Shown: positions 3,936-29,950 of the stretch, piece after piece
How the letters are laid out: every line of letters begins with the position of its first letter
Position numbering within the stretch: the first letter of the stretch is position 1
DNA from: an uncultured Pseudomonadales bacterium
Lineage (GTDB): Bacteria > Patescibacteriota > Microgenomatia > UBA1400 > PJMF01
Direction of reading: 5' to 3'
DNA: 64,000 bases
Assembly (NCBI GenBank): GCA_964583795.1
Contig: CAZOWX010000001.1
Location: 30,569-94,568, forward strand
Position numbers and translations under genes: made by a program
The notes under the pieces: generated by a model
Database searches by the model: none
What the model was told of the DNA's origin: nothing
Seen by the model: only the letters and a program-made list of their open reading frames with translations

Positions 3936-5570
3936 ATGACTCAGCTACTCAAGAGATACTCTTTTGGATTAATGTTTATTGCTATTATCTGTATCGCTAC
4001 TGTGCTTCGCCTCTATAAGCTTGACCAAGTCCCGTCTGGCATGAGCTGGGACGAAGCAGCAATTGGCTACAATGGCTACGCTATCTGGACTGTGCATCGT
4101 GACGAGTGGTTACATTTTATGCCATTTTCGTTTAAATCATTTGGGGATTTCAAGGCTCCGTTTGCTATCTATTTAAACGGAATATTTACAGTACTTTTCG
4201 GACTACAGCTTTGGGTAATACGTCTACCATTCGTAATTGCTGGTGTCGCAAGTATCATCGGAATGGCATGGTTGATTCATCTGTTGTTTCAAGTATTTCC
4301 ATTTCGTCAGGAAAATCAAAAAAACGCTTCTCAACTCACAGTTCTCGGGATTGCTTTCATCATCACGACTTCACCATGGCACATCTTTTTTACTCGGGCA
4401 GGATTTGAATCAGGTATGGCGATGGGCTTTATGATTTGGGGTATGTGTTTCTTTTTGCAAAGTCTCCACACTCAATCAAAACGTTTTTTATTTGTGGGTT
4501 TGAGTGTAATCAGTTTCGTATTGGGCCTGTATACCTATCACAGTGCTAAAATCTTTTTACCAATTTTTTTTGTTGTTCTTTTTGCCTTTTTCTTTCAATC
4601 AATCAAAAAACATTTCGCTGTCTATAGCTTTGGACTCATTTTCGGAATCATATTGCTGACACCACTCGTGTATGACTCGGTGCTTGGTCAGGGTACAGAA
4701 CGGTTTTCTCAAACTTCGTTATTTAGCAATCAAAAGTTGACCTCAACTGAAAAATTGACAACTTTTGTCAGTAACTATGCTCACCAATTTTCACCAGCTT
4801 TTTTGTTTGCTGGAGAAACAACCACACTTCGACATGGAGATGGGCACTGGGGAGTGTTGTTTTTAACCGATGGATTGTTGCTGATAGCGACAACTATCTG
4901 GTTTATTCTCCTTTCTGTATCGAAAAAAGCTGCTCGGTTTTCCTCTCCACTATCCAAAATCTACCTATTGGGAGTTTCATGGTTTTTAATCGGTTTGTTG
5001 CCAGCAGCAATCGGAATGGAAATTCCTCATGCCAACAGAGCATTATTAAGTTACCCAGGTTTTCTGATCATCGAAGCATTGGGAATATTTTTCCTACTGG
5101 AGAAACTTACTGCAAGTAGTAAACCAACAGTAAAACTTGTTGTTCAGGCACTATTAGGAACTGGATTCATGCTTCATGTTTTTTTTGTCGTGTCGTTTAC
5201 TCATGATTACTTTTCCAAATACTCGCTCGACTCAGCTGAGGCTTTTCAGTACGGTTACAAAGAGGTATTTGATTACGTTTTACCTCGCGAATCACAAGTT
5301 GAGAAAGTATTAATCACTTCTAAATATGGCCAACCGTACATTTACACATTGCTGTATCGCCACACCAATGCCATTTTGTATCACGGTGGGGCTCTGAGCA
5401 AATATGAGTACCCCGATACGGTCAATATCGGCGATGTGATTCGTAAAAACGCTATTGTTGTTGCAACCCCTGAAGAACTTGATCCATCTATTGCTGATCA
5501 ACTTATTCTTGCTCCAAGTGGAGAAGTTCGGTTTGTGATTATTAATACGGCAGAGCATCCAAGGCTATGA
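3936..5570 (+). CDS. GT-C membrane glycosyltransferase, PMT_2/ArnT-like (GT39/GT83-type), paralog 1 of the tandem array
   Basis: Polytopic membrane protein. The loop-1 acidic motif WDEAA, FKSFGDFKAPF, RLPFVIAGV and EIPHANRALL are shared with the three downstream paralogs. Confidence 0.75.
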   Translation: MTQLLKRYSFGLMFIAIICIATVLRLYKLDQVPSGMSWDEAAIGYNGYAIWTVHRDEWLHFMPFSFKSFGDFKAPFAIYLNGIFTVLFGLQLWVIRLPFVIAGVASIIGMAWLIHLLFQVFPFRQENQKNASQLTVLGIAFIITTSPWHIFFTRAGFESGMAMGFMIWGMCFFLQSLHTQSKRFLFVGLSVISFVLGLYTYHSAKIFLPIFFVVLFAFFFQSIKKHFAVYSFGLIFGIILLTPLVYDSVLGQGTERFSQTSLFSNQKLTSTEKLTTFVSNYAHQFSPAFLFAGETTTLRHGDGHWGVLFLTDGLLLIATTIWFILLSVSKKAARFSSPLSKIYLLGVSWFLIGLLPAAIGMEIPHANRALLSYPGFLIIEALGIFFLLEKLTASSKPTVKLVVQALLGTGFMLHVFFVVSFTHDYFSKYSLDSAEAFQYGYKEVFDYVLPRESQVEKVLITSKYGQPYIYTLLYRHTNAILYHGGALSKYEYPDTVNIGDVIRKNAIVVATPEELDPSIADQLILAPSGEVRFVIINTAEHPRL

Positions 5571-7255
5571 TATCGAAACTTATGACTCGCCATCACCTCG
5601 TTATTGTTAGTATCTTGTTGATCAGTTTTGCCCTACGGGTCGTCAATCTACAACATCTCCCTCCATCACCATATTGGGAAGAAGTCGCTTTAGGATATGA
5701 CGCGTATAGTATTTTAAAAACTGGAAAAGATCATCATGGTCACCTCTTTCCACTTGTGGCTTTTGAGTCGTTTGGTGACTACAAACCATCAGGATATTTT
5801 TATGCTATTGTGCCCTTTATAGCACTGATTGGTTTGTCGGTATTTGCAGTACGACTCCCATCAACTCTAGCAGGAGTTGCTATTGTCTACTTTAGTGGCG
5901 CGATTGCCAAATTACTGTTTCACTCTGAAATAGCGAAACAAGCGCATTCATGGAAAGCAATTTTACTTTCTCCACAAATACTGACCATGATTGTGACTGC
6001 ATTTTCACCGTGGGCCCTGCAATTTTCTCGGGGAGGGTGGGAAGTTAACTTAGCAACATGTTTTTTGACTATTGGTGTATACAGTGCACTACGAGCAGCG
6101 CAACAACTACAAACCAAAGGGCACTCAACAACTCTGGTGTTTCAATGGTACTTTATTGGCTTTATTTTCTTTATTCTCTCCACGTATACCTATCACTCGA
6201 CTCGGATCATTGCGCCACTCTTGGGGATAGTTACTGCAATCCCACTGCTCAAACAAGCCGCAAAATACAAACTCACCATTGCGGCGCTCCTATTTTTGGG
6301 AATTCTAACAATGCTCCCAATACTGTATCAAATAAAAGATCCAGCGGTCACTCATCGATTACAAGAAACTTCCGCTTTTACTACTCAACAAGAAATTGAT
6401 CAAAGTAATCAACTCATTACCCAATTTGGCTCAACTCGACTGGCAAGAATTGTGTTTCACCGTGACTGGTTTTACCTCAAAACATTTTTATCGAACTACT
6501 TTTCTCACTTTCGTCTCGATTACCTTTTTCTATCTGGAGATAACAATACTCGACATTCAACCCATTTTTTTGGATTATTTTTTCCAACTGACCTGGTTGT
6601 ACTTGCACTTGGAGTTATTGCGATGGTAACGCAATGGAAACACCGTTTTCATTTGTTGTGGATTTGGCTTGGTATCGGGCTCATCCCATCAGCTCTCACC
6701 AAAGATGTGCCACACGCTCTTCGCACCCTGCCAGTGCTGCCGGTATATATGGTAACTCTGGGAATTGGATTTACCTACTTATTTGAACAGCTGGCTAAAC
6801 TTCGTTTCTCAAAACTTCTTTTTGCAGGTATTAGCTTTATCGTTTTGGCTGAAATTATCGTGTATTGGCATTTTCACTTTACAGTATATCCAACCTATTC
6901 TTCCAAAGAATGGCAGTACGGCTATCAACAAATGATTGCGGCCATTAAAAGCAATCAACAAACAAATGAAGCAGTGTTTATTACCACTGAAAAAAAACGG
7001 CCAGCCATGTACTACTGGTTTTTTACTAAAACGGATCCCGTTTTAGTCCAAGCAGAAGAAAATACCGCTCAAAAAGATCAAGGAGAGTTTTTATCATTTC
7101 AAAATATCAAGTTCATTTTTCATTTATCAGGGAGTGAGCAAGGCCTAATTGCCAGCGGACCAGAGCAGCGAAAAAACTTTCCTAACGCTCAAGAGTTAGC
7201 AACCATTACCGATTTACAAGGCCATCCAATTTGGATTGTTTACCGGGCACAATAG
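5567..7255 (+). CDS. GT-C membrane glycosyltransferase, PMT_2/ArnT-like, paralog 2
   Basis: ATGA overlap with paralog 1. Motifs are WEEVALGYDAY, FESFGDYKPSGYFY, RLPSTLAGV and DVPHALRTLPV. Confidence 0.75.
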   Translation: MISKLMTRHHLVIVSILLISFALRVVNLQHLPPSPYWEEVALGYDAYSILKTGKDHHGHLFPLVAFESFGDYKPSGYFYAIVPFIALIGLSVFAVRLPSTLAGVAIVYFSGAIAKLLFHSEIAKQAHSWKAILLSPQILTMIVTAFSPWALQFSRGGWEVNLATCFLTIGVYSALRAAQQLQTKGHSTTLVFQWYFIGFIFFILSTYTYHSTRIIAPLLGIVTAIPLLKQAAKYKLTIAALLFLGILTMLPILYQIKDPAVTHRLQETSAFTTQQEIDQSNQLITQFGSTRLARIVFHRDWFYLKTFLSNYFSHFRLDYLFLSGDNNTRHSTHFFGLFFPTDLVVLALGVIAMVTQWKHRFHLLWIWLGIGLIPSALTKDVPHALRTLPVLPVYMVTLGIGFTYLFEQLAKLRFSKLLFAGISFIVLAEIIVYWHFHFTVYPTYSSKEWQYGYQQMIAAIKSNQQTNEAVFITTEKKRPAMYYWFFTKTDPVLVQAEENTAQKDQGEFLSFQNIKFIFHLSGSEQGLIASGPEQRKNFPNAQELATITDLQGHPIWIVYRAQ

Positions 7256-7267
7256 CAATTACATATC

Positions 7268-8947
7268 ATGTCTCATATTTTTACTCAACATCGATTCACT
7301 CTTTTAGCAGTAGTCATACTCGGATTAAGTTTTGTTTTTCGTTTTTGGCAATTAGGAAATGTGCCAGTTGGTTTGTATTGGGATGAAGTGGCTATGTATG
7401 TTGATGCGAAAACAGTTTCACAATCATTGAAAGATATGCATGGAAATAGCGCTCTACAAGCGATGTTTCCATCATATGGTGATTACAAGTTACCAGTGTA
7501 CATCTGGCTAGCAAGCTTGAGTTTTAAGCTGTTTGGAGCGAGCAACTTTGCGCTGCGATTGCCCAGTGCTATAGCAGGGATACTGCAAGGGTACCTCATC
7601 TTTGTATTGGTTAAAGAACTCTCAAATAAATTCATTTCGAAAGAAAAAAGTCAGTACTTGGGTTTATTGGGTTGGTTTGTTTCAGCAGTTTCACCATGGA
7701 GCGTGTTATTTTCGCGAACTGGATTTGAAGGACACATCGGTCAATTACTCATCTGCGCTTCAGTCTTCAGCTTCGTTTCTTCTAAAAGAAACAGGTTGTG
7801 GCTTATACCAGCTATAGTATTGGGAATCTTGAGCACATACACCTATTATAGTGTCCGGTTCGTTTGGCCCATCGTATTCATAGGGTACTGGTTTTTACTT
7901 CAACCATTTCCCAAAACACTACTGCAATTTGTTAAATCTAGTTTTGTGAGTGTAGCGTTACTTCTTATCTGGGGAATAGGAATCTTACCGCTCTTTTTTT
8001 CTCCTTGGTATCAACCAAGTCAACAATTTCGCCTTAGCACTCCATCGCTGATGGATTTGGGTCCATACAGTATTCGCTCAAACGAGTTTCGCGAAATGAG
8101 TGGCAATGGGCCACTTTCTAGAGTGTTTTATCATCAGCGCGTTTTGCAACTGCGCGATGTGCTCGAGCATTACGCGGATCATTTTGACTTTTCATATCTA
8201 TTTATTTCAGGAGATAAAAATTTACGACATAGTACGGGCTTCGATGGTCTGTTTTTACTCTTTAGCGCACCACTACTCGTAGCTGGAATCTTATATTTGG
8301 TGAAAAACGATGTTCGACTGTTTTTGTTTTTGTTTGGATGGTGGCTGATTGCCTTGTTACCAGCATCTATTCCAATTGAAACGCCTCACGCACTGCGATC
8401 ACTCAACGCCTTAACTCCGATACTTTTGTTAATGAGTTTCGGGGGTATTCCAATTACACAAATTATACAATCAATCCGACCGGCTTCATTTCGTTTTGGG
8501 GCAGTTTTTTTGATTATCCTCATGATAACAGTTCAAGTTACTTGGTTTACGGTTGACTATTTTTTTATTTATCCAGGTAAAAGTGCTCATGACTGGCAGG
8601 AGGGATACCAGACTCTAGCGAAAGTCATAGAAGATAAACATGGTTCATATGACAAAGTTTGGGCAAATCCGTATGATGATCGATTCTTTTTGTGGTATCT
8701 AGCGTACTCCAATATGGACGCGCAGCGGATTCAAAGCATAATGAAAGATACCTTTTTGACAGATCGAATTGACAATATTATTTTTCAAGAGTTTCCCTTT
8801 GATAAATCAAACCCCAGTGTCCGCCCGTTCATGACCATAAAACGCAGTACTGCAGACAACGATGAGAATAATCCATCGACAACGCAGCAAGAGATTTTGG
8901 GGTATGATCACCAACCATTGTTTATCATTCGTTATTATGAACGCTAA
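7268..8947 (+). CDS. GT-C membrane glycosyltransferase, PMT_2/ArnT-like, paralog 3
   Basis: Motifs are WDEVAMYVDAK, FPSYGDYKLPVYIW, RLPSAIAGI and ETPHALRSLNAL. Confidence 0.75.
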   Translation: MSHIFTQHRFTLLAVVILGLSFVFRFWQLGNVPVGLYWDEVAMYVDAKTVSQSLKDMHGNSALQAMFPSYGDYKLPVYIWLASLSFKLFGASNFALRLPSAIAGILQGYLIFVLVKELSNKFISKEKSQYLGLLGWFVSAVSPWSVLFSRTGFEGHIGQLLICASVFSFVSSKRNRLWLIPAIVLGILSTYTYYSVRFVWPIVFIGYWFLLQPFPKTLLQFVKSSFVSVALLLIWGIGILPLFFSPWYQPSQQFRLSTPSLMDLGPYSIRSNEFREMSGNGPLSRVFYHQRVLQLRDVLEHYADHFDFSYLFISGDKNLRHSTGFDGLFLLFSAPLLVAGILYLVKNDVRLFLFLFGWWLIALLPASIPIETPHALRSLNALTPILLLMSFGGIPITQIIQSIRPASFRFGAVFLIILMITVQVTWFTVDYFFIYPGKSAHDWQEGYQTLAKVIEDKHGSYDKVWANPYDDRFFLWYLAYSNMDAQRIQSIMKDTFLTDRIDNIIFQEFPFDKSNPSVRPFMTIKRSTADNDENNPSTTQQEILGYDHQPLFIIRYYER

Positions 8948-10517
8948 AACCTTCATCATTACACTTGTTTCCATTGTCGTTTTCGGATCAATTATTCGAT
9001 TCGTAGCTCTTGATCAATATCCACCTCAGCTTAACCGAGACGAAGCCGCTTTGGCCCTTAATGCCAGACTGATTGCTCAAACTGGTTTTGATGAGTGGCA
9101 TCATCACTTGCCACTGCAATTTCAGTCTTTTGGCGATTACAAGTTACCAGGGTATATCTACTTGTTATCAGGGTTGTTCTTAATTCACACTAGTGATGTT
9201 GTTGTGCGTTTGCCTTCAGCTTTAGCAGGGATGGGAATAGTCATTACTCTGCTATTTTGGGCACAAAATGTACTCAAATTTCCATTGTCGCGTGCATCCA
9301 AAATCGTCTTGCTCCTGAGCATTTCACTCTCTCCTTTTGCTATGTTTTACTCCAGGATGGCCTGGGAAGCAAACCTGTCACTTTTTCTGATGCTCTCTGC
9401 TTTGACACTACTACATTCTCAAAAACCAACACTTCACAAAGATCTTTTGGCTCTGCTGATCTACTTCGCAGCAATTTTGACCTACAACAGTGCATATATC
9501 TTGTTACCGTTCATTGCGTTTTCGGTAGTCTTATCAAGGGGAATCAACAAATACCGATTTTGGCTACTTCCACTCGCTTCATTTTTAGTCATATTTACCA
9601 TAAGCTCACTCATACTAATGTCGAATAACTCCCAAAAATCTGGAATTTTAATTTTTAGTGATGGTGCCATTCTCGATACCTATCCTAAATATCGCCAAAG
9701 TTTTCCTAATGTGTTGCGGCCCGTTGTCGGCAATAAATACGTCTATTTCTCACAGATTGCTGCCACTCACTATCTACAGACATTTTCTCCGTATTTTCTG
9801 ATTACTCATGGTGGACAGCACCCATGGCACTCAATTTTAGGGAAAGGGCACATTTTTTACAGTACATATGTTTTATTTCTTATCGGTGTTATGACTCAGC
9901 TGAGCAAAGCAATTTACTTTTTGAAAATGAGACACAAATGGAAAAAATTAAGTACTCGATCAATTATTCCGTTTTTTTTGCTAATCGTCTCACCATTACC
10001 CTCTATTTTTACCACAGACGCGCCCCATGCCACCCGAAGTTTGTTTACTTTTATCATGATTATTGTGTTTTCTGCTATCGGAGGACAACACCTGCTAAGC
10101 ACAGCAGCAAAACACTCATTCCAGTTGCGAAAAGCAGTCATCACCATTCTCTTGGGCTTGCTCATCTTTGAGGGTGCTAACTATTTAAACAGTTATTTTA
10201 TTGTGTGGCCCCACCAATTCTCTCCAGACTTTCAACTTGGACTCAAACAAAAAATCACAGATGAAGTGCTACAACCAAGAGACGGCAACATTGGCATTTT
10301 GGATACCGGCGAGTATGTATACGCCTCAGTCGCTTGGTATGCAAGGCTGCAACCACAGTTATTTTTCGATACAATAGAACGAAGTGGACCATCAGTAGCC
10401 GGTTTATATACTGTAACTCGAGTGGGGAAATACTACTTTATTCCTGACAAGAACATTGCTGTTCCTTACGGCTCAGAAGTACTCACTCCTACCAAATCTG
10501 GATGGGAATGGCAATAA
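8937..10517 (+). CDS. GT-C membrane glycosyltransferase, PMT_2/ArnT-like, paralog 4
   Basis: The start was moved to the ATG at 8937 (MNAKTFIITLVS…), overlapping the paralog-3 stop by 11 nt. Motifs are NRDEAALALNA, FQSFGDYKLPGYIY, RLPSALAGM and DAPHATRSLF. Confidence 0.7.
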   Translation: MNAKTFIITLVSIVVFGSIIRFVALDQYPPQLNRDEAALALNARLIAQTGFDEWHHHLPLQFQSFGDYKLPGYIYLLSGLFLIHTSDVVVRLPSALAGMGIVITLLFWAQNVLKFPLSRASKIVLLLSISLSPFAMFYSRMAWEANLSLFLMLSALTLLHSQKPTLHKDLLALLIYFAAILTYNSAYILLPFIAFSVVLSRGINKYRFWLLPLASFLVIFTISSLILMSNNSQKSGILIFSDGAILDTYPKYRQSFPNVLRPVVGNKYVYFSQIAATHYLQTFSPYFLITHGGQHPWHSILGKGHIFYSTYVLFLIGVMTQLSKAIYFLKMRHKWKKLSTRSIIPFFLLIVSPLPSIFTTDAPHATRSLFTFIMIIVFSAIGGQHLLSTAAKHSFQLRKAVITILLGLLIFEGANYLNSYFIVWPHQFSPDFQLGLKQKITDEVLQPRDGNIGILDTGEYVYASVAWYARLQPQLFFDTIERSGPSVAGLYTVTRVGKYYFIPDKNIAVPYGSEVLTPTKSGWEWQ

Positions 10518-10521
10518 TTAT

Positions 10522-11313
10522 ATGATCTCAGTTGTACTCGCGACCCACAACGAAGAAAAAAACATACAGCGCTGTTTGGAAGCGGTAAAAAGTTTTGCTG
10601 ACGAAATCATTGTTGTGGATGGTGCGTCAACGGATCAGACAGTTACCATTGCCAAAAGATTTGGGGCTCAAATCACTTCAACTACCAATAAACCCTTATT
10701 TCATATCAATAAACAGATGGCTATGGATATGGCAAAAGGGGAGTTAGTCCTACAACTTGATGCCGATGAAGTCGTTGATAAAGAGTTAGCCAGATGTATT
10801 CAAAAAATTCACACGCAGATAATCAGTGAGAAGCTTTCATCCGCACTTCCGTCGGCCTGGTGGATTCGTCGTAAAAACTGGTTTTTATCACGTTTTTTAA
10901 CAAAAGGTGGACAATATCCTGATCCAGTGATTCGACTCTACCAAAAAGGCAAAGCGCATTTACCGCAAAAAGATGTGCACGAACAAATGCAAGTCGATGG
11001 AGAAGTGGGCTTTGCAAAGGGACATTTACTGCACTATAGTAGTCCAACTTTTAACGTTTATTTGCGCAAATGGAATGACTACGCCACACTAAAGGCCAAA
11101 GAACTACTGGCACAAAAACGCTCAATATCTGCTGGCAACGCGGTTTATTTTTTACTTTTTAAGCCTGTTATAACCTTTCTTTCCATATTCGTTCGTCACA
11201 AAGGATTTGTCGATGGCATACCAGGATTCATTTTTGCGTTGTATAGTGGGTTACTGTTTCCAGTTGCATACTTAAAGTATTGGGAGATGCTACAAAAAAA
11301 GAATCAAACATGA
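10522..11313 (+). CDS. Glycosyltransferase family 2
   Basis: Start taken at the internal ATG 10522 (MISVVLATHNEEKNIQRCLE…IIVVDGASTDQT…LQLDADE). This is the GT2 fold. Confidence 0.75.
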   Translation: MISVVLATHNEEKNIQRCLEAVKSFADEIIVVDGASTDQTVTIAKRFGAQITSTTNKPLFHINKQMAMDMAKGELVLQLDADEVVDKELARCIQKIHTQIISEKLSSALPSAWWIRRKNWFLSRFLTKGGQYPDPVIRLYQKGKAHLPQKDVHEQMQVDGEVGFAKGHLLHYSSPTFNVYLRKWNDYATLKAKELLAQKRSISAGNAVYFLLFKPVITFLSIFVRHKGFVDGIPGFIFALYSGLLFPVAYLKYWEMLQKKNQT

Positions 11314-12395
11314 CCGTCCTACTCAATTCATCACCACTGCATAATGCCAACTCAATACGTGGCGTTGGAGTGTATACCCGTTTTTTGTCGGATGCACTTG
11401 AATCGCTTCAAACTCAACAAGACCAGTTTATTACCGGTGATGATATTGGACTTGATCAGCTCAACGCCATTATGGCAAAAAGAGGAATTGACATCATGCA
11501 TTACCCTTTTTTTGACCTGTTTTTGCACACATTGCCATTACCAATTGAACAAAAAATTCTTGGCAAATCAAAACAAAAAGTAGTTGTTACCATCCACGAC
11601 GTGATTCCACTGCTTTACCCCGATCATTATCCAGTTGGTATAAAGGGTTCATTTCATTTCTTTTTGCAAAAACAAGCATTGAAAAGTGTTGATGCAATTA
11701 TTACCGATTCTCAGACTTCCAAAGCAGATATCGTAAAGCATCTTTCGATGAATGAAGAGAAAGTCACCAGCATTCCTCTGGCAGGAAACCCTCAACTTCA
11801 AAAAAGTGACGCTGCTACAATTGCTAAAGTTCGCTCACACTTTCAATTACCTAAACATTTTGTGCTCTATGTTGGTGATATCAACTATAATAAAAATATT
11901 CCAGCGTTGATTCAGGCAGTACAATCAATCGATCAAAATGTTCATCTGGTGTGTGTGGGTAGGAATTTTTACCCACAACATATTCCTGAATGGCAAGCAA
12001 TAGAAGCAGTGCTTGAACCAGTAAAAGATAGGGTTCATTTTCTAACAAAAATTGCTAAAGATGATACTCAAACATTATCGGCCCTTTATAGTACTTGCGC
12101 GGTATATGTTCAACCGTCGTTATATGAGGGGTTTGGGTTACCCCTTTTAGAAGCAATGCAGTGTGATGCTCTGATTGTTTCCAGTAACACCCCTGCATTG
12201 ACAGAAATTGGAGGAGAAGGAGTACTCTTTGTTAAGCCGTCCACTAGTGAACTTGCTCAAGGAATCAAAAAAACGCTTTCATACACAGAGCAAAAAAAAC
12301 ACCAATTGAAAGCTAAAAACCACGAAACAGTACAACACTTTTCCTGGCACAAAACCGCTCTGCAGACAATCCAAGTGTATAAAAGCGTCCTATGA
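11310..12395 (+). CDS. Glycosyltransferase family 4 (GT-B)
   Basis: ATGA overlap with upstream gene. The C-terminal YVQPSLYEGFGLPLLEAMQCDALIVSSNTPALTEI is the GT4 EX7E-type motif. Confidence 0.8.
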   Translation: MTVLLNSSPLHNANSIRGVGVYTRFLSDALESLQTQQDQFITGDDIGLDQLNAIMAKRGIDIMHYPFFDLFLHTLPLPIEQKILGKSKQKVVVTIHDVIPLLYPDHYPVGIKGSFHFFLQKQALKSVDAIITDSQTSKADIVKHLSMNEEKVTSIPLAGNPQLQKSDAATIAKVRSHFQLPKHFVLYVGDINYNKNIPALIQAVQSIDQNVHLVCVGRNFYPQHIPEWQAIEAVLEPVKDRVHFLTKIAKDDTQTLSALYSTCAVYVQPSLYEGFGLPLLEAMQCDALIVSSNTPALTEIGGEGVLFVKPSTSELAQGIKKTLSYTEQKKHQLKAKNHETVQHFSWHKTALQTIQVYKSVL

Positions 12396-15277
12396 AAAAA
12401 ATAGTGTTACTACTTACTATCGCTGTACTCACGTGGGTCAACTTTCACACCTATCTTGATTCACGCTTCCCTTACACCAATGATGGAGAAAATCATCTCG
12501 CTCGATTTGCCAACTATAGAATTGCTTTGAAGGAAGGGCAAATTCCTCCTCGTTTCGCTCCCAATTTAATTAACCACTATGGCTATCCGGTCTTTAATTT
12601 TAACTATCCACTAGCCAACATTCTCTCGTTACCGCTAAGCGCTGTAAAGCTCAATCCAGAGCTCTCATTTAAGCTTATTGCGGTGAGTGCTTATGTGTTT
12701 GGATTGATAGGGATGATGCTGCTGTTGTCAAAACGCACACAATCAACCAAAGCAATACTACTTGGGTTGGTCGTTTTTGGAACAGCACCCTATTTTGCTA
12801 ATACCATCCTTTTCCGTGGGAGCATAGGTGAGCTGCTCGCTTTGACTATCCTTCCATGGGTACTACTCACAATTCACAAAACGATTGAGAATCATCGGTT
12901 TTCGGTATCGACTGTCATCATCTGGTCAGTTTTTTTGCTGAGTCACAACGTTAGTGTCGTCATTTCTATTCCATTTTTACTTGCATACACATTTTTTATG
13001 ATGTATCAGAGCAAGAAAATAACTACTTTTTTTTCCTTACTAAAAATGAGCGTAGCTTCGATAGGATTAACGTTGTGGTTTTGGCTACCAGCTTTAGCTG
13101 AAGCAGATGAGACCGTCGTGCGATCGGCAGCAATCGCGAATCAATTTTTTCAACACTTCCCAACAACACAGGAGTTATTGTTTGGTCAGTTACGTTTTGG
13201 TTTTTCCGAGATTGGCCCGGTCGATTCACTGGGGATGCAACTAGGAGTCGTTGTAACGGTGAGTATTTTCTTAAGTATGCTCGCAGCGATAAAACTACTG
13301 ATTACTAAACAAAAAATTTCTAAACGGATATTTTTTTTATTCTCAACAGTACTGCTGTTAATCTTTTTACAACTCGATCTCTCATCATTTATTTGGAAAC
13401 TCATTTCTCCGCTTCAGATTATTCAATTCCCGTGGCGACTCGCGCTACTCACGACGCTGGTCACACCACTTTTATTGATTGAAGTGATTCCGTACCTTTC
13501 TCGAAAGCTACTGTATTTGGTCGGCATGTTTGCATTGATGAGTGTATATCTTATTGCGCAACTCACACCAATCGATTACTTTCATAAAGAGCAAATCGAG
13601 TATGATTTATTCTCACAAAGCACTTCGACACAAAATGAGAATCGTACGAAAAATTTTAGTTATATTGAAATTGGTGATTGGAAGCCAACAGCAATAATAG
13701 AAGGGAATGGGAGAAGTGATGTTCGAGTGTGGACTGGATCTCACAGGTTTTATAAGCTTAACTTACAATCAACAAGTCTTATTATCGAGCCAACGATGAA
13801 TTTTTTAGGGTGGGAGACAACGGTCATAGACAAATCAGGCAAAAAAGAATCCATCAGGTACATCGATAATAATCACACTCAGGGCCGAATTGCTTTTGAA
13901 CTACCAAGCGGTGAGTATGAAGTGCGGTCAAGATTTACCCAAAATACTATTGCTCGAAAGATGGGGAACTCACTTTTTGTCGTGACACTTACACTGTTGA
14001 TCGGGTTTTTTATCATCCGAAACAAGGTCTATACAAGAACAATAGCAACATTTCGATCGCTAGCTGATACCCAAAAACTCATCGTGATTGCCACAATCTG
14101 GTGGGTTTTTCTCTTTATTATCGGAGCAGTTGCGCATTTCGCAATCCCCTTCACCAATACATTTTCTACCTATGCTGTACAGGAAGCCTCTCAATTACCG
14201 GACTGGTTTAAACATTGGGGAAACTTTGATGGGGGATCGTATATGATTATTTCTGAAAAAGGCTATCTTGGGATCGGTCTTATTCAGGCGTACTTTCCTG
14301 CCTATCCAATCATACTCAAGATCGTAACCGATAGACTTTCTTTTTTGGTTCCTTTGTTTGAAATTTCAATCCTTGATGTTCGCTTCATTAGCGGGATAGG
14401 CATTAACTTTATACTGACAATACTGCTATTTGTTGTCGCTAACCGATATTTTTCACTCCGATTCTCAATGCGGCAACGAACGAATATATTAATAGGTTTT
14501 CTCCTTTTTCCAACGGCGTTTTTTATTCATGCTCTGTACACGGAAACATTTTTTCTTTTCTTGCTGGTCCTGAGTCTCTATTTTTATCATAAAAAAAAGT
14601 TGAAATTGTTGTCGATAACGCTGATAGGGCTGACTGCTACTCGCATTGTGGGGATTGTTCTGGTCCCAGCACTCGTTCTTGATTTACTTTTTAGCTATAA
14701 GTGGGACTCGAAAAAATCTGTTATTAAACAAGTAGCACTATTCACTCGACAACACTTTCAAACAATTACTGCCATTGTAATTGGTGGGAGCGGCTTAGCA
14801 CTCTACATGTGGTATCTTTGGATGAATTTTCAGGATCCACTGTACTTTTTTCATGTTCAGTCATCATTTGGAGCAGGCAGACAACAATCAATTGTGACAT
14901 TTCCTCAAGTTGTCTGGAGATATATTAAAATTTTGTGGACAGCCCGTCCATTTAACTTGATGTATTTCAATTACCTCCAAGAGTTTCTGTTTACAATGGG
15001 AACACTTTTAATTTTAGTCATTGCCTTCATCAAAAGAAAGCAACTAAACATTTCATTACCTGAACTGTTTTTTAGCATCGGGGCGTTCTTTCTGCCTACG
15101 TTAACTGGAAATTTTTCGAGTATGCCCCGGTATGTACTTGTTTGTTTGCCAATTTTTATTGTCACGAGCCGGTTGTTTGAAAAATCGAAACTCGTGAAAT
15201 ATATTTACGTCACACTAAGCACATGTTTAGCTTGTATGAATATTATTTTGTTTATCCAGGGACACTGGGTCGCCTAA
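12392..15277 (+). CDS. Large (961 aa) polytopic membrane protein built from two GT-C-like halves (PMT/YfhO-like N-terminus, mannosyltransferase-like C-terminus)
   Basis: About 25 predicted hydrophobic segments. The N-terminal loop has DGENH. A central ~150-aa soluble segment sits around 13.6–13.95 kb. The second membrane half carries WGNFDGGSYMII. Family assignment is tentative. Confidence 0.5.
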   Translation: MKKIVLLLTIAVLTWVNFHTYLDSRFPYTNDGENHLARFANYRIALKEGQIPPRFAPNLINHYGYPVFNFNYPLANILSLPLSAVKLNPELSFKLIAVSAYVFGLIGMMLLLSKRTQSTKAILLGLVVFGTAPYFANTILFRGSIGELLALTILPWVLLTIHKTIENHRFSVSTVIIWSVFLLSHNVSVVISIPFLLAYTFFMMYQSKKITTFFSLLKMSVASIGLTLWFWLPALAEADETVVRSAAIANQFFQHFPTTQELLFGQLRFGFSEIGPVDSLGMQLGVVVTVSIFLSMLAAIKLLITKQKISKRIFFLFSTVLLLIFLQLDLSSFIWKLISPLQIIQFPWRLALLTTLVTPLLLIEVIPYLSRKLLYLVGMFALMSVYLIAQLTPIDYFHKEQIEYDLFSQSTSTQNENRTKNFSYIEIGDWKPTAIIEGNGRSDVRVWTGSHRFYKLNLQSTSLIIEPTMNFLGWETTVIDKSGKKESIRYIDNNHTQGRIAFELPSGEYEVRSRFTQNTIARKMGNSLFVVTLTLLIGFFIIRNKVYTRTIATFRSLADTQKLIVIATIWWVFLFIIGAVAHFAIPFTNTFSTYAVQEASQLPDWFKHWGNFDGGSYMIISEKGYLGIGLIQAYFPAYPIILKIVTDRLSFLVPLFEISILDVRFISGIGINFILTILLFVVANRYFSLRFSMRQRTNILIGFLLFPTAFFIHALYTETFFLFLLVLSLYFYHKKKLKLLSITLIGLTATRIVGIVLVPALVLDLLFSYKWDSKKSVIKQVALFTRQHFQTITAIVIGGSGLALYMWYLWMNFQDPLYFFHVQSSFGAGRQQSIVTFPQVVWRYIKILWTARPFNLMYFNYLQEFLFTMGTLLILVIAFIKRKQLNISLPELFFSIGAFFLPTLTGNFSSMPRYVLVCLPIFIVTSRLFEKSKLVKYIYVTLSTCLACMNIILFIQGHWVA

Positions 15278-15318
15278 ATACAAAATTCTTAACAAAAAAT
15301 CGATGATTGAGGAGCACT

Positions 15319-16257
15319 ATGTCACAAAAAATTATTGTTACCGGTGGAAGCGGCTTCTTAGGCACACATCTTTGTCGCTCGTTGCAAAAAGAGGGGTATG
15401 CGGTCCTCAACATTGATTTAAAAGAGAGCAGTGAAGTACAAACCATCATTGCCGATATCAGAGATGAAAAAGCAATGCACGAATACATCAAAGATGCCGC
15501 TGCAGTTTTTCACCTAGCGGCACTAATTGAAGCAGGTGAGTCGGTAAAATTTCCTCAAAAATTTATTGACTATAATGTTTCTGGCACAGTAAGCGTACTT
15601 GAAGCGATGAGAGCAAATAGCATTCCTCTGTTTTTATTTTCCTCAAGTGCTGCTATCTACGGCGAACCTCTGAGAGTTCCAATTGAGGAAGATGACAGAA
15701 CTTTGCCTATTAATCCATACGGAATGACCAAGCTTGCCATGGAAGCTCTAGTATCTTCTTATGTTTCCAGTTTTCAGATGACTGGAGTCGCTTTGCGGTA
15801 TTTTAATTTGTATGGACCAGAAGAACATCATCAGCCAGAATCTCATGCAATTCCGCGGTTTATTCGTCAAATTTATCACGGTGAGGAAGTAACAATCTGG
15901 GGAAGTGGGGAGTATCAAAGAGACTTTATTCATATTTCAGATGTTGTCAGTGCCCATACATTGGCACTACGCTACGCCTTAGAGCACCCAAAACAGTACC
16001 ACTACTACAATATATCAACAGAGATTCCGAAAAGCGTCATTGACGTCATTCACATGGTCGAAAAAGCAATGGGGAAGACAGCCAATATCACTCATTATCC
16101 TGATCGACCCGGCGATCCACTGATCCTGGTGGCTAAAAGTCAAAAAGCCAGGAATGATCTTAACTGGGTACCGCAGATGAAAATTGAAGATGGAATTGCC
16201 CAAACTGTTGAGTACTTTGTCAATCTCTGGAAAAATCAACCACCTAAAGATTTTTAA
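15319..16257 (+). CDS. NAD-dependent nucleotide-sugar epimerase/dehydratase (UDP-glucose 4-epimerase-like)
   Basis: A GGAG RBS sits 5 nt upstream of ATG 15319. The Rossmann motif is KIIVTGGSGFLGTHL. The SDR-extended layout matches the GalE family. Confidence 0.75.
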   Translation: MSQKIIVTGGSGFLGTHLCRSLQKEGYAVLNIDLKESSEVQTIIADIRDEKAMHEYIKDAAAVFHLAALIEAGESVKFPQKFIDYNVSGTVSVLEAMRANSIPLFLFSSSAAIYGEPLRVPIEEDDRTLPINPYGMTKLAMEALVSSYVSSFQMTGVALRYFNLYGPEEHHQPESHAIPRFIRQIYHGEEVTIWGSGEYQRDFIHISDVVSAHTLALRYALEHPKQYHYYNISTEIPKSVIDVIHMVEKAMGKTANITHYPDRPGDPLILVAKSQKARNDLNWVPQMKIEDGIAQTVEYFVNLWKNQPPKDF

Positions 16258-19052: not shown

Positions 19053-20597
19053 CTATTCAAATCCCCAGCTGTAAAGTGTCCCGGGCCAGATTGAGTAGGG
19101 ATTATCATCAAGAGGATAATGGTCAAGGTGTATTTCTTTGCGTAAATATTGTTGAGCAAACTCTACGACGTCTGCGGGTAACGAGCTGTCATCAATCCAA
19201 ACAAAACCGTGTTGATACTGATTCATCACTTTTTGAAAATCATCAAGTGACCCTACAAATCGAATCGCTGGGCTTGAAAAATTAGGAAGTACTTTTTCAC
19301 TATTGAGCAAAGAGACTGCAGTTGTTTTTGCCAAACCATTTACCGTCCCTTGCTCATTTTCCCAATGAAAATAAAACATGTTTGGATTTTCATATCCCAA
19401 GTACCATCTGGCTCGATCTGGCCAGGTATCTACAATTGCGACTGGCTGCGAACTGCTCATAACTTTTTGTTTTATGATTGAGTACACCAGATCATAATCA
19501 AGCAAAGCAATTTCCCGCATATCGTGATTCACAGAATAGTACGCTTTGGGTTTGATAACAAAAGTATCACCATTAGCAATAATAAATAGCGCGAGTAACA
19601 AAACAAACCCTGTTGCCTTTTTAGCCGCAATGCTGTGACTTACTGTTGCGAGCGCGAAACTTGCCAATATCAATATGAGTGGGTAGATCGGTAAAATGTA
19701 CCGAGAAACGTATGGACCAAACACAAAACTGACGAATACTAAGAAAAGTCCTGCTGGAACAACTAGTAAAAATGTACCTTTTTTGTAATGAAAAAAGTTC
19801 ATCAAGACACCGAGTCCCGCCAAAAAGCTCATCAAAGTATGTTCTCGCCATAAAAAGCTGTGATAGTACCACAAATTATTTGGGTGATTTCTCAAAGCAA
19901 CTAACAAATTTGCGATAACTGTCCCACCACTACCATTAAACAGCATTAAACCACCGAATATTCCCAAAACAGCAGCCCCATAGTGCCAATATCTTCGAAA
20001 AGTATTTAAAGAAAATAAATGCCAATGAAAACCTAAATAAACGGCATGGAATATCATTCCGATCACAACAATCCAAAAGGTTGTATGGGTTACAATCCCA
20101 AGAATAATCAATGCTGTCAAATACAATAATTTTTTAACTTCAAAATGTTTCACTAAACGGTGATATGTCCACAAGCTCAGCAATATAAGTAACTGAAGCA
20201 GCATGTAACTTCTCGCTTGTCTGGACCAGGCGATTTGAAAATAGGAAAAGGTCGCGAAAAGGCTTGCAGCAAGAGCAGTTTCACGATCATATAATGATCG
20301 GGCTAACAAAAAAACTGCAACAGGGATAGCAGATCCAATCAATACTGAAGGTAAACGTGCCGCTCGTTCTGTTTGACCAAAAAGTTGAAAAAATAATGAT
20401 ACAAGCGCGTGTTGTGTCACATTGTGATGTTCAAATAACTCATCGTGTTGGGTAAACACAGACAAGCCAAATCGCTGGAATAATAACGCATTACGTGCTG
20501 TCGAAAATTCGTCAACCCAAAATGGAGTTTGCAGATTTGGAAGACGATAGAGCAGAGCAATCGCGAAAATCGCAATGAATAAGATTTTTTTAATCAT
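19053..20597 (-). CDS. GT-C membrane glycosyltransferase, PMT_2/ArnT-like
   Basis: Polytopic. The loop-1 motif is WVDEFSTARNAL, followed by RLPSVLIGSAIPVAVF, as in the plus-strand paralogs. Confidence 0.7.
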   Translation of the reverse strand: MIKKILFIAIFAIALLYRLPNLQTPFWVDEFSTARNALLFQRFGLSVFTQHDELFEHHNVTQHALVSLFFQLFGQTERAARLPSVLIGSAIPVAVFLLARSLYDRETALAASLFATFSYFQIAWSRQARSYMLLQLLILLSLWTYHRLVKHFEVKKLLYLTALIILGIVTHTTFWIVVIGMIFHAVYLGFHWHLFSLNTFRRYWHYGAAVLGIFGGLMLFNGSGGTVIANLLVALRNHPNNLWYYHSFLWREHTLMSFLAGLGVLMNFFHYKKGTFLLVVPAGLFLVFVSFVFGPYVSRYILPIYPLILILASFALATVSHSIAAKKATGFVLLLALFIIANGDTFVIKPKAYYSVNHDMREIALLDYDLVYSIIKQKVMSSSQPVAIVDTWPDRARWYLGYENPNMFYFHWENEQGTVNGLAKTTAVSLLNSEKVLPNFSSPAIRFVGSLDDFQKVMNQYQHGFVWIDDSSLPADVVEFAQQYLRKEIHLDHYPLDDNPYSIWPGTLYSWGFE

Positions 20598-21883: not shown

Positions 21884-23470
21884 TCAAGCCGCCGAGGCTG
21901 GTTTTACTTGTTTCGGGGAAAAGTCTTTGAGGTGACCTAAGAAACGCCACCCAGCCATAGCCAAAAACTTCACATCATCAAACGATCGGATGCTAGTAAT
22001 TTTTCTGAGCATAAACCGTGGTGTTAAAAATGACGAGTATAGTTTTTGGGTAAGCCGTAAGACGTCTTCTTGCGTCAGTGACGTTTTCATCACCGGCTTT
22101 CGCATGTCATAGTCCTCATAATCCTCACTCAATAACCACCCGTTCTCTTTGCATTCCTTCCAAAGTGGGGTACCTGGATAAGGGATAGTGATAGTCGCTT
22201 GAAGTGTATCAACATAGCCTTCGTCAAAGCACTCTTTAGCGAGATTAATCGTTCGCTCTGCGTCCTCATATGTTTCCCAGGGATATCCCAGCATTATCGT
22301 TAAATGCGGCTCTAATCCAGCTTTCTTGGCCATTTTCACACCTTCTTTAATTTTGGGAACTTGCATACCTTTCTCGAGCCGATCGAGCGTTTTTTGATTA
22401 CCTGACTCCATGCCATAGAGAATGAATCGAAAATTCGCTTTTCCCATTAGGTCATAATCATCTTGCTTTATGGCATTAAGCCGCATATTACAGCCATAGA
22501 TCACTTTTTTGTTGTATCCCGAGTCAATCATCATCTGGCAAAAATCACGAAGCGGCTTGCCAATCATGAATGTACCCGCATCATCAAAAATTTCTTTGAC
22601 GTGATAGTTATCAACTAAGTGCTTGACTTCAGCGAATAGTCGCTCAGGACTAAATCGACGATAACTCCCCAAGGGGTTGATTGTATGATCCCAAACACAA
22701 AAGGTACAACGATTCCACCAACAATCGCGCCCACTGTACATGTAGGTACCAGGATAATACTTATAATTTCCGTTGTAGTACGCGTAGTTTTCCCAATGTG
22801 TCAGGTCGCGATCGACGAATGGTAAATCATTCAAGTTGTGCTTTAAACTTGCAGGACCAGAGTTGTAATATATTTTGCCATTTACCCCTTTAACCTTATG
22901 AAATTTCTTACATGAAATGGACTTATCTGACGAACGCCACCACACTCCCGTTTCAAGCTCTGTTCCCTTGCTCAAGTGGTCAAGTAAGTTCACAATCACA
23001 AAATCATAATCACCACCGGTAATCAAGTAATCTACACTGCAATTGTCCATCGTCTCCTGAGGCATGAAGGTCACGTGATCACCAACTAAGACTACTTTAA
23101 GTTTTGGCATCGCTTTTTTTATTTTGTCGACAACTTTCCAATGTTTTTTAATCACTGGTGATTTTGACTCAATCATCAGTACATCTGGATTGAATTCCTT
23201 AAGTTCTGTGAGCCATTGATCATACGTTTGCTCAGCAGCAATACCGTCCATCCACTTAGTTTCATAACCATGCTCTTGTGCATTCGACGCTGCATACGCT
23301 GGAACCATCGGGTAAATATAGGTCTTTGCGTTAAAATACTGAAATTGTCGGTTTTGAGAAAGAAGCGGAACCCCTTTACTTGACGGAATTGGAGGATAAC
23401 CAAAAACAAACTTCAACTTTTTTATTGATTTTTGTTTCATCACTTTTTTTGTGGTTTTTTTCGCTGGCAT
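21884..23470 (-). CDS. Cobalamin(B12)-binding-domain radical SAM protein (class B rSAM, probable methyltransferase)
   Basis: The N-terminal Rossmann-like B12-type domain is KVVLVGDHVTF…ITGGDYDF. The radical SAM cysteine cluster is RDCWWNRCTFC. The class-B motif GMESGNQKTLDRLEKG is present. Confidence 0.65.
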   Translation of the reverse strand: MPAKKTTKKVMKQKSIKKLKFVFGYPPIPSSKGVPLLSQNRQFQYFNAKTYIYPMVPAYAASNAQEHGYETKWMDGIAAEQTYDQWLTELKEFNPDVLMIESKSPVIKKHWKVVDKIKKAMPKLKVVLVGDHVTFMPQETMDNCSVDYLITGGDYDFVIVNLLDHLSKGTELETGVWWRSSDKSISCKKFHKVKGVNGKIYYNSGPASLKHNLNDLPFVDRDLTHWENYAYYNGNYKYYPGTYMYSGRDCWWNRCTFCVWDHTINPLGSYRRFSPERLFAEVKHLVDNYHVKEIFDDAGTFMIGKPLRDFCQMMIDSGYNKKVIYGCNMRLNAIKQDDYDLMGKANFRFILYGMESGNQKTLDRLEKGMQVPKIKEGVKMAKKAGLEPHLTIMLGYPWETYEDAERTINLAKECFDEGYVDTLQATITIPYPGTPLWKECKENGWLLSEDYEDYDMRKPVMKTSLTQEDVLRLTQKLYSSFLTPRFMLRKITSIRSFDDVKFLAMAGWRFLGHLKDFSPKQVKPASAA

Positions 23471-24471: not shown

Positions 24472-25296
24472 TTAAATCAAGGGAATAATTTTTCTCTTCA
24501 CTTTTTCAGGCGGATGAAACCGGGAGTGCGGTAACTCGTAGTACTTCATTATTTTAAAGCGATAAAAAATCCCTAAAGTGTCGTAAAAAATCTTCCAAAT
24601 ACTTTTCCAGTCTGCAGCAGAACTGATGTTCGAAAAAGTATAATCTAACTTAATAGGAGCTTCGTAAATCCGATGAAATCCCAAAGACTTTGCTACAACC
24701 AACATCTCTAAATCACCAGCAAAACGTTTTTCAACCAAACGAGGCAAGGTTTTTTCCAACACCTTACGTTTAAAAACCTTAATCCCAGCTTGTGTATCTT
24801 TCACTTTGACCCCAAATAGGGTTTTCACAAAGTAGTAATACCCAATACTCAAGATTTTTCGCTGCAATGTATAATTTACCTGAGAAGCAGGGTGACGTTT
24901 TGACCCGACAATGACATCGGCGTTATACCACTTCATGTGTTCTAACAACATGCTAATCCCATCCGCCCCGATTTCCATACCAGAATCTAAAAACATCACG
25001 TGTTCTCCCAAAGCTTGACTCATCCCAAAACGAATGGCATACGATTTCCCTTTATTTTCCGCATACTCATACACACTCGCTTGCGATAATCGCCCATACT
25101 TCCCTCTAATGCTCGCATTACTCAACACACGAAAAGAGTTGTCATACTCTCCATCAACAACCACAATCACCTCATAGGAGTAACGAGTTCTTCCCAAGGT
25201 TTCAACTATTTGCTTCAAATTGTCAACAATAAATTTTTCTTGTTTATAGCAGGGGATAATTAAACTTAAAAATGGGGTTTGCTTCATGCTCAACAA
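24472..25296 (-). CDS. Glycosyltransferase family 2 (polyprenyl-phosphate glycosyltransferase / DPM1-GtrB-like)
   Basis: Motifs are LSLIIPCYKQEKFI…VIVVVDGEYDNS…FLDSGME. The size and layout resemble Dpm1/GtrB-type enzymes that load a lipid carrier. Confidence 0.65.
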   Translation of the reverse strand: MLSMKQTPFLSLIIPCYKQEKFIVDNLKQIVETLGRTRYSYEVIVVVDGEYDNSFRVLSNASIRGKYGRLSQASVYEYAENKGKSYAIRFGMSQALGEHVMFLDSGMEIGADGISMLLEHMKWYNADVIVGSKRHPASQVNYTLQRKILSIGYYYFVKTLFGVKVKDTQAGIKVFKRKVLEKTLPRLVEKRFAGDLEMLVVAKSLGFHRIYEAPIKLDYTFSNISSAADWKSIWKIFYDTLGIFYRFKIMKYYELPHSRFHPPEKVKRKIIPLI

Positions 25297-27704: not shown

Positions 27705-27718
27705 ACTTGTCTATTTAA

Positions 27719-27753
27719 TTTGCATATTACAAATATACTAACATAATTTGGAG
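27719..27753 (+). promoter_or_regulatory. Sigma70-like promoter plus RBS for the FMN-binding lipoprotein gene (TTTGCA -35 / CATAAT -10 / GGAG)
   Basis: TTTGCA 27719–24, a ~17-nt spacer and CATAAT 27742–47. GGAG 27750–53 sits 5 nt before ATG 27759. The region is divergent from the minus-strand operon start. Confidence 0.45.
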
Positions 27754-27758
27754 ACAAT

Positions 27759-28205: not shown

Positions 28206-28229
28206 TTGAGTCTGATTAAAAAAGTTTCA

Positions 28230-28263
28230 ATACCTGCTTCGGCTCGAAGCAGGTATTGTTTTT
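28230..28263 (+). terminator. Rho-independent terminator (12-bp perfect stem ATACCTGCTTCG/CGAAGCAGGTAT, loop GCT, then TGTTTTT)
   Basis: Read directly from the sequence, 25 nt after the lipoprotein stop. Confidence 0.7.
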
Positions 28264-28280
28264 ACAATCAAATAAATTCT

Positions 28281-29714: not shown

Positions 29715-29950
29715 ACCTGGATTATACAGTACACATACTTTACCGCTCGCAGCACCTTCACAAAGCGAGAAAAACATCGCTCATGCAAAGGTCTGTTGAG
29801 TGCAAAATAAAAGGACAAAAAATCCTGCAATGAACCACCAAGCGAATCTCATGATATAGTATTATATCATAACACAGTGTTTATAGTGTATTGCAGGTTT
29901 CTCTCTCTGAGACCCTTTTTTTAGTAATCTTTCTGTATACTATTAGATGT

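Follow-up and report, generated by a model that had tools for sequence, protein, structure and literature searches.

A 961-residue membrane protein from a Patescibacteria contig as an in-frame fusion of two different GT-C-type modules

The 64,000-nucleotide stretch of DNA analysed here (contig CAZOWX010000001.1, positions 30,569 to 94,568 of the forward strand; the whole stretch is called the window below) carries at 12392..15277 (+) an open reading frame (ORF) for a membrane protein of 961 amino acids plus the stop codon. The ORF is a genuine in-frame fusion of two modules, an N module (aa 1-550) and a C module (aa 551-961), both of which are predicted to have the fold of GT-C glycosyltransferases and which, judged by their homologs, belong to different families. 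We consider it probable that the ORF is a recent fusion of neighbouring genes of the GT-C_A class, and that its product carries out consecutive sugar transfers to one extracytoplasmic glycan. Among the products of GT-C enzymes are the N-glycan core, glycosylphosphatidylinositol (GPI) anchors, the cell wall of mycobacteria and many modifications of bacterial surfaces. The characterised ones have, to our knowledge, a single catalytic module per chain. Patescibacteria are uncultured bacteria with small genomes that probably live attached to host cells.

Integrity of the fused reading frame

The ORF extends from ATG to stop without interruption, and its ATG shares 4 nt with the stop of the upstream gene for a family 4 glycosyltransferase (GT4). 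The frame stays open through the junction of the two modules at ~14020-14090, where both other frames contain stops, and no in-frame stop, no ATG and no alternative start/stop arrangement is left in this region. The same protein was found in a second assembly: the Logan contig DRR783857 (locus L003), assembled independently, encodes an identical chain of 961 aa. Over 8886 bp this contig differs from the window by 37 single-nucleotide polymorphisms (SNPs), none of them inside the ORF; since the SNPs lie in the flanks, a second, slightly different genome has the same fusion. A further 17 full-length fusions of 917-1033 aa, 37-42% identical to the window protein, align with it end to end, and the fusion P0003 is present on 11 contigs.

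The explanation to be weighed here is that a frameshift error in the metagenome-assembled genome (MAG) merged two truly separate genes. It would fit the closest relatives, all of which are split with the C gene in a different frame, and the several homopolymers of 6-8 nt in the ORF. These homopolymers, none longer than 8 nt, are runs of Phe and Lys codons on which both assemblies agree. None lies within the junction itself, and the junction is remodelled with respect to the split relatives, not shifted by one base. Because the second assembly carries the fusion, the frame is open at the junction and fusions are found in other lineages, an assembly or frameshift artefact is very unlikely, and we leave it only a marginal chance.

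A sequence-only reading of the window had taken the ORF for one gene with no hidden frameshift, and the continuous frame and the identical protein in the second assembly bear this out. It had also allowed for two genes in place of one; the window has a single ORF, while nearly all relatives have two overlapping genes, which points to a recent fusion. The weight that it gave to homopolymers in the gene was not upheld, as no significance of them could be demonstrated. They were also considered as phase-variation sites, and this idea was dropped: no evidence for it was found in runs of Phe and Lys codons that are unchanged between the two assemblies.

The two modules

Neither the whole protein nor either of its parts matched a Pfam or NCBIfam model even at E<=1, and sequence and profile searches of the PDB with either half found no meaningful sequence-level relative. 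The family placement of both halves was therefore taken from scanning their homologs. Hydropathy analysis showed two hydrophobic blocks with a soluble stretch of ~110 aa (aa 408-519) between them. Modelling of the two halves separately by AlphaFold2 (AF2), followed by Foldseek comparison, had been proposed in the sequence-only reading and proved informative. From deep alignments, models with a predicted local distance difference test score (pLDDT) of 91 and 94.7 and a predicted template modelling score (pTM) of 0.92 and 0.93 were obtained for the N and C halves, respectively, and the top matches of both were GT-C structures.

The N module (12392..14041, +) was delimited by the AF2 model, the Foldseek and homolog Pfam matches and the hundreds of standalone ~550-aa proteins that match residues 1 to ~550. 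In the model, ~13 transmembrane (TM) helices precede a beta-sandwich, after which one more TM helix closes the module. TM1 is followed by a long first extracytoplasmic loop (EL1) containing helices 32-47 and 73-84, and then by more TM helices up to aa 389. The top 28 Foldseek matches in the PDB were all GT-C proteins, namely PglB, AglB, STT3, EmbA/B/C, ArnT, Pmt and AftD, with weak scores (best E 1.9e-3, TM-score 0.3-0.44) at a probability of about 1.0. Homolog conservation and the helix positions in the model point to PYTNDGENHLARF (aa 27-39, 12470..12508, +) as the catalytic-loop motif. It includes YTNDGENHL (aa 28-36), one of the two motifs quoted in the sequence-only reading, both of which are real. 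D31, N34, H35, A37, R38 and F39 are invariant in 81 standalone homologs and 18 fusions, E33 is nearly invariant, and D31 stands directly before the juxtamembrane helix 32-47.

The ~110-aa soluble stretch had been read as an insert following an N-terminal module of ~400 aa. The stretch is real; rather than an insert, it is the N module's own beta-sandwich, which together with a TM anchor is found in the standalone ~550-aa N proteins as well. The predicted extracytoplasmic domain (aa 408-519, 13613..13948, +) has eight beta-strands between aa 435 and 515 in the model. It is followed by the last TM helix of the module (aa 520-549, 13949..14038, +), a model helix with an Arg/Lys-rich C-terminal end that would bring the chain back to the cytoplasm. 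Since the standalone proteins contain both the soluble domain and the following TM helix, the N module extends to ~aa 550 and not to ~400. Local Foldseek matches of the beta-sandwich were accessory beta-sandwich domains of GH44 xyloglucanases and of alpha-agarase (probability 0.96-0.98), and W447, G449, Y454, E466, G473, W474 and G498 are invariant in the N homologs. Possibly the domain binds glycan and holds the glycan acceptor.

The scan of N-family homologs with Pfam models found PF10131 'PTPS_related' in 21 of the 81 (best E 9.5e-19) and GT-C_AftD in 6. Models of PMT, PMT_2 and YfhO matched none of the 81 at E<=0.01, and at the family level the earlier classification of this half as a PMT/YfhO-type protein had to be abandoned. 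The homologs in question are 40-54% identical to the window protein, which has no PF10131 match of its own at E<=1; the N half would belong to PF10131 by transitive homology only.

The C module (14042..15274, +) is placed by the AF2 model, Foldseek and the Pfam matches of its homologs as a compact GT-C_A-type fold of a family related to PIG-V, GT87 and PMT_2. Residues ~551-961 match hundreds of standalone proteins of ~380-415 aa. In the PDB the top 36 Foldseek matches were all of GT-C fold, the best being ALG12 (9s6t_A, E 1.1e-4, TM-score 0.52); ALG9 followed at a TM-score of 0.51, and ALG3, GPI-MT-I, ALG6, AftA and the PIG-U subunit were found lower down. The second quoted motif, WGNFDGGSYMII, is aa 609-620 of the ORF. 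Conservation and helix position in the model mark WGNFDGGSY (aa 609-617, 14216..14242, +) within it as the catalytic-loop motif. F612, D613 and G614 are invariant in 88 standalone homologs and the 18 fusions, and D613 begins the model's juxtamembrane helix 613-623 downstream of TM1 (557-583). Pfam models matched by the 88 homologs were PF04188 (PIG-V) in 27 (best E 4e-9), PMT_2 in 19 and GT87 in 5, and several members of the family are named 'Gpi18-like mannosyltransferase' by the Joint Genome Institute (JGI). The suggested likeness of this half to mannosyltransferase-type GT-C modules thus found agreement in the PIG-V matches of its family. The window C half itself has no PF04188 match at E<=1, and by its homologs the family appears to sit between the PIG-V, PMT_2 and GT87 models, membership in PIG-V/GT76 being only transitive.

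Enzymes of the GT-C_A class are defined by a conserved module of seven TM helices and by their first extracytoplasmic loop, which contains two helices and has the catalytic base on the first (PMC13503287, PMC12041525). In ALG3/9/12 and in PimE this base stands at the N-terminal end of that EL1 helix (PMC13503287, PMC12041525). The N half has two EL1 juxtamembrane helices (32-47 and 73-84) between TM1 and TM2 and an acidic residue, D31, at this place; the C half has the acidic D613 at the tip of its first EL1 juxtamembrane helix. D31 and D613 thus occupy the catalytic-base position of GT-C_A enzymes in the models, and we infer that they serve in catalysis. Lys/Arg-rich loops alternate along the chain as expected, the cytoplasmic loops, including the junction, being positive. 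The junction RNKVYTRTIATFRS lies on this positive, cytoplasmic side, and by the positive-inside topology both putative catalytic EL1 loops would therefore face outward.

The common GT-C_A fold raises the alternative that a single GT-C gene was duplicated in tandem and the copies then diverged. One weak alignment obtained by hhalign does fall in the conserved TM module. The profile-profile comparison of the N and C halves gave a probability of only 4.4%, however, and BLAST found no similarity between them. The halves map to different Pfam families, each with a large standalone family, and their architectures differ, the N half having 550 aa and a beta-sandwich, the C half 411 aa and none. In the Pfam GT-C clan, PF10131 and PF04188 are listed as two families, the function of PF10131 being unknown (PMC7801869). 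Because of the hhalign result, the absence of BLAST similarity and the separate Pfam families of their homologs, the two halves are to be regarded, at the level of sequence comparison, as members of different GT-C families. The view of the sequence-only reading that two distinct GT-C-type modules are joined is in keeping with this result and with the GT-C folds of both models, and the internal duplication within a single family that it had set against this view was not found. A recent duplication is effectively refuted and we give it next to no chance; what remains is the ancient common ancestry of all GT-C enzymes. A relation of either half to the four neighbouring ~550-aa membrane proteins was also considered and rejected, as BLAST found no similarity; those four are PMT_2-like paralogs of each other.

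Junction and origin of the fusion

The fusion junction was located by DNA alignment with the split relatives L001 and L002 to the linker RNKVYTRTIATFRSLADTQK (aa 545-566, 14024..14089, +), which is predicted to be cytoplasmic and stands where those relatives have their overlapping stop and start. These closest relatives have the same gene order with the N and C modules as separate genes, encoding 554 or 552 aa and 406 or 409 aa, respectively; the two genes overlap by 8 or 14 nt and the C gene is in a different frame. Aligned with them, the window shows a 7-nt gap exactly at their stop/start overlap. The mutation that fused the genes cannot be uniquely reconstructed, as the DNA is 66% identical and other indels lie nearby. 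Compared with the other fusions, the window protein has a junction of another length and another sequence.

The closest relative of the C half, P0121, is 65% identical to it and has its own ATG, which overlaps the tail of an N-module ORF. The short Logan contig that carries P0121 has an unusual arrangement (L004:1-330): beside the N tail, aa 187-252 of the N module are encoded in inverted orientation on the minus strand, and the tail contains an in-frame stop. This contig is probably chimeric or rearranged.

Distance-based neighbour-joining trees were produced for both modules. In the N tree the window protein falls inside a clade made up solely of split genes (bootstrap 96/100); in the C tree it groups with P0121 (60/60), and the wider split clades around them have support of 58-59/60. 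The other fusions are placed elsewhere in the trees, 14 of them being nearly monophyletic. Since the window protein nests in clades that are otherwise all split, its fusion is independent of the other fusions and recent.

Split and fused relatives

A profile scan of species-representative genomes with the N family gave 76 loci, mostly from MAGs labelled as members of the Patescibacteria group; many others are labelled 'uncultured Pseudomonadales' or 'bacterium'. The named sources of the standalone homologs are Patescibacteria, Pacebacteria and Woesebacteria. Loci were counted as informative if the N module was complete and the sequence went on for at least ~1.7 kb downstream of it; there were 63. 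A C module follows the N module immediately downstream on the same strand in about 43 of them, the two are fused in 4, a more distant C-like gene lies 0.6-3.3 kb downstream in about 10, and no C module is found within 6 kb in 6. The two genes overlap in 38 of the 43 adjacent split pairs, in most cases by 4 or 8 nt, and in the other 5 the gap is <=11 nt; for these counts the starts of the split C genes were assigned by a heuristic. When 1.84 billion cluster representatives were searched exhaustively with HMMER, 8753 relatives came up, and only about 6-7 of the top 150 representatives are fused (P0004, P0020, P0022, P0241, P0300, P0368 and the fragment P0244). From these comparisons, fusion is rare but recurrent, and tight coupling of the N and C genes is the rule. 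Separate genes elsewhere and consistent neighbours, two of the marks of a 'Rosetta stone' pair, are both observed.

Two further observations were made on these loci. Runs of A of >=6 nt occur at the overlap in 16 of the 43 split junctions (among L007-L082; for example L002:11640-11660 and L004:320-360), as compared with 7.8% of background windows of the same size. These may simply be Lys codons of the cytoplasmic tails, or they could be slippery sites where slippage of some ribosomes or transcripts gives a fused N-C protein from split genes. One of the 4 fused loci, L038, has an in-frame stop inside the N module (L038:7480-7500); the open frame into the C part starts at 7492, and the N match reaches ~7578. 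A pseudogene, an error in sequencing or recoding could account for this.

Proposed function

Both modules of the fused protein would use polyprenyl-phosphate-sugar donors, each handing a sugar on to an acceptor at the membrane's outer face; D31 would be the catalytic base in the N module and D613 in the C module. A cytoplasmic linker of ~10-20 residues would connect the N module to TM1 of the C module, and the two modules would act consecutively on the same growing extracytoplasmic glycan. The N and C proteins would normally be made as a translationally coupled pair and probably form a complex, in which case the fusion fixes a 1:1 stoichiometry. The adjacent cytoplasmic family 2 (GT2) and GT4 glycosyltransferases may start the glycan, the nearby Wzx-like flippase may flip it, and the six PMT_2-like GT-C paralogs of the locus may decorate it further. 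The ORF, its division into two modules, their folds, the conserved residues, the spread of split and fused genes and the independent origin of the fusion are results of the analysis. That both modules are active, use lipid-phosphate-sugar donors, share an acceptor on which they act in succession, and form a complex is what we infer; a stoichiometric pair working on the same glycan is suggested because the genes are nearly always coupled, have been fused several times and have compatible topologies. Processive addition of two sugars, as suggested in the sequence-only reading, is conjectural.

Several points weigh against this proposal. Similarity to solved structures is at the level of the fold only (TM-score 0.4-0.5, E 1e-4 to 1e-2), and the window sequence has neither a Pfam or NCBIfam match at E<=1 nor a relative in the PDB at the sequence level. 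Neither family has a biochemically studied member, and the function of PF10131 is unknown. Fusion is rare, with the ~6-7 fused cluster representatives in the top 150 mentioned above, and a small indel at an overlapping stop/start suffices to produce it, so that the fusion could be nearly neutral and not selected. The 6 loci that have an N module without a C module within 6 kb show that the partnership is not obligatory.

Some of these points can be read as favouring a neutral accident, in which two GT-C enzymes act independently on different acceptors or at different steps and were joined only because the stop/start overlap made joining easy. With overlaps, for the most part of 4 or 8 nt, in 38 of the 43 adjacent pairs, fusion is indeed mutationally easy; it has remained rare, the N module occurs without an adjacent C module in the six genomes, and many other GT-C genes of the locus are unfused. 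On the other hand, the order N then C and the adjacency of the two are kept in about 47 of the 63 informative loci across diverged lineages. The fusion arose several times and persists in a clade of at least 14 diverged sequences with <=40% identity to the window protein, and topology permits it only because both the end of the N module and the start of the C module are cytoplasmic. A neutral accident therefore appears unlikely to us.

The structural matches of the C half bring in another possibility, namely that only one module is catalytic and the other is a scaffold or substrate-binding subunit of GT-C fold that presents acceptor or lipid in the manner of PIG-U. PIG-U, a subunit of the GPI transamidase that has the GT-C fold and is not a glycosyltransferase, is among these matches (7wld_U), a likeness to PIG-U has been reported for PimE as well (PMC12041525), and neither family has been studied biochemically. 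Against a scaffold role stand the invariant Asp at the catalytic-base position and the invariant Arg/His in both halves, in ~100 sequences each, and the matches of C-family members to models of catalytic mannosyltransferases. We regard a non-catalytic module as quite improbable, and two active modules acting consecutively on one glycan as the preferred interpretation.

A stronger form of this interpretation may be put forward tentatively, with rather less conviction: the PF10131-type and PIG-V-like GT-C proteins of Patescibacteria might be an obligate pair from two families, a glycan hand-over machine with two active sites, of which the fusions are single-chain versions. Should this be true, a heterodimer or tandem enzyme combining two different GT-C families would have been described for the first time, and PF10131 would gain a defined partner and a pathway in an uncultured phylum with uncharacterised surface glycans.

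Taken with the near-universal overlap of the genes, the fusion strongly hints, at the genomic level, at joint action of two uncharacterised families. Through it PF10131 and the surface glycan of Patescibacteria become open to experiment, and the fused protein is a handy 1:1 construct for expression and cryo-electron microscopy. The gain is incremental: both halves belong recognisably to a familiar class of enzymes, and nothing points to unexpected chemistry.

The glycan gene locus

The ORF sits in a region of 40% G+C that is dense in glycan-synthesis genes. It contains a GT4+GT2 fusion, four tandem ~550-aa membrane proteins, a GT2, a GT4, the fused ORF, a GalE-like epimerase and a double GT2; a Wzx-type flippase, another PMT_2-like protein, a B12-radical-SAM enzyme and additional genes for GT2, GT4 and epimerases are also present. 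None of the neighbouring genes could be named by an NCBIfam model above its curated cutoff, and no tRNA or Rfam element was found in the window.

Immediately upstream of the ORF are a GT2 predicted to be a soluble enzyme of GT-A type (10456..11313, +; PF00535, best PDB matches GmaR and SunS) and the GT4 (11280..12395, +; Pfam Glycos_transf_1 and Glyco_transf_4). Both keep their positions in L001, L002, L003, L005 and the P0010 locus. Downstream lies a putative NAD-dependent sugar epimerase/dehydratase similar to GalE (15307..16257, +; Pfam Epimerase, E 7e-64), again in conserved synteny; it scores 208 bits with the NCBIfam GalE model, below the cutoff of 262, and does not point specifically to mannose. 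The fused lineages share a core string of PMT_2-like paralogs, GT2, GT4, fusion and epimerase, with a flippase further downstream. A candidate polyprenyl-phosphate-sugar synthase, a GT2 of 274 aa by Pfam (24472..25296, -), had its best, though weak, sequence matches in the PDB with GtrB (5ekp, E 1.5e-7), dolichol-phosphate mannose synthase (DPMS; 5mlz, E 6.6e-6) and ArnC (9hwj, E 5.6e-4), and could supply the lipid-linked donor to the GT-C enzymes.

The four tandem ~550-aa membrane proteins (3936-10517, +) are paralogs with 24-29% mutual identity, only one of which reaches the Pfam PMT_2 threshold, and the tandem array is also found in L001, L002 and L005. With two further PMT_2-like genes (19053-20597, -, and 29891-31474, +) there are six, and these together with the two modules of the fusion make eight GT-C modules in ~30 kb, which suggests extensive assembly of an extracytoplasmic glycan. 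The coordinates of the longest ORFs overlap in this part of the window, by 86 nt between 7268-8947 and 8862-10517 and by 62 nt between 8862-10517 and 10456-11313. Shorter genes are found for the homologs in L003 and L005, with 263 aa in the case of the GT2, so the true starts of the ORFs given as 8862 and 10456 are probably further downstream.

Other genes of the region were noted. A second glycosyltransferase fusion of the locus, a 718-aa GT4 (Glycos_transf_1)-GT2 protein (1738-3894, +), is also present in L002. The B12-binding radical SAM protein (21884-23470, -) is HpnJ-like with 176 bits, below the curated cutoff, and occupies the corresponding position in L002. Between two blocks of glycan genes lie those for an RnfD/NQR2-like membrane protein and an ApbE flavin transferase (26859-29147). 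A 610-aa protein has a Wzy_C / O-antigen-ligase domain (38161-39993, +); in a Patescibacteria genome it could serve as an O-oligosaccharyltransferase or else ligate or polymerise the glycan that this locus produces.

Comparison with known systems

PIG-V/Gpi18 (GT76, PF04188) and PimE (GT87) resemble the C half in having ~400 aa, the GT-C_A fold and an Asp at the tip of the first juxtamembrane helix. Unlike them, the window C half matches neither model and is fused to a second GT-C module, and 19 of the 88 members of its family match PMT_2 instead. We know of no description of the GPI pathway, or of the phosphatidylinositol mannoside (PIM) pathway, in bacteria of the candidate phyla radiation (CPR). 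The role of the corresponding residue of PimE, D58, has been described (PMC12041525).

The best structural matches of the C half are ALG12, ALG9 and ALG3 (GT22 and GT58; 9s6t_A and 9s6u_A), mannosyltransferases of the endoplasmic reticulum lumen that use dolichyl-phosphate mannose. ALG3/9/12 are GT-C_A enzymes acting in succession on one lipid-linked glycan (PMC13503287), and the consecutive action proposed for the fusion is modelled on them; PimE, Mpt, Emb and Aft of mycobacteria are also comparable. The likeness is at the level of the fold, with 11-13% identity, and the ALG enzymes are separate polypeptides, none of them fused to another GT-C.

For the N half, the comparison is with the oligosaccharyltransferases PglB/AglB/STT3 and the mycobacterial arabinosyltransferases Emb/AftD, which likewise have ~13 TM helices and then an extracytoplasmic C-terminal domain. 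The beta-sandwich of the N half is reminiscent of carbohydrate-binding modules in Emb, AftD and the GT136 enzyme (PMC11127046). The N half differs from this group by its D-G-E-N-H motif, by the small size of its extracytoplasmic domain (~110 aa) and by the extra TM helix after it, and it matches these proteins with a TM-score of ~0.4 and an identity of 8-14%. Its nearest sequence family, PF10131 'PTPS_related', is without a characterised member and gives no functional information.

At the level of the locus, the logic is that of the extracytoplasmic glycosylation systems (PMC11127046), with a GtrB/DPMS-like GT2, a Wzx-type flippase and GT-C enzymes. In contrast to those systems, there are eight GT-C modules and not one, the components do not form a tidy three-gene unit, and no donor flippase of GtrA or MATE type was identified in the locus.

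Our searches of the open-access literature yielded no tandem fusion or heterodimer of two different GT-C families and nothing on CPR GT-C clusters, and PF10131 was met there only in the clan listing. Two-subunit complexes are known in Pmt1-Pmt2 (6p25) and EmbA-EmbB (7bvc), both among the Foldseek matches, in which two GT-C catalytic subunits stand side by side in one membrane complex. Those subunits are paralogs of the same family on separate chains, whereas the fusion described here joins two families covalently.

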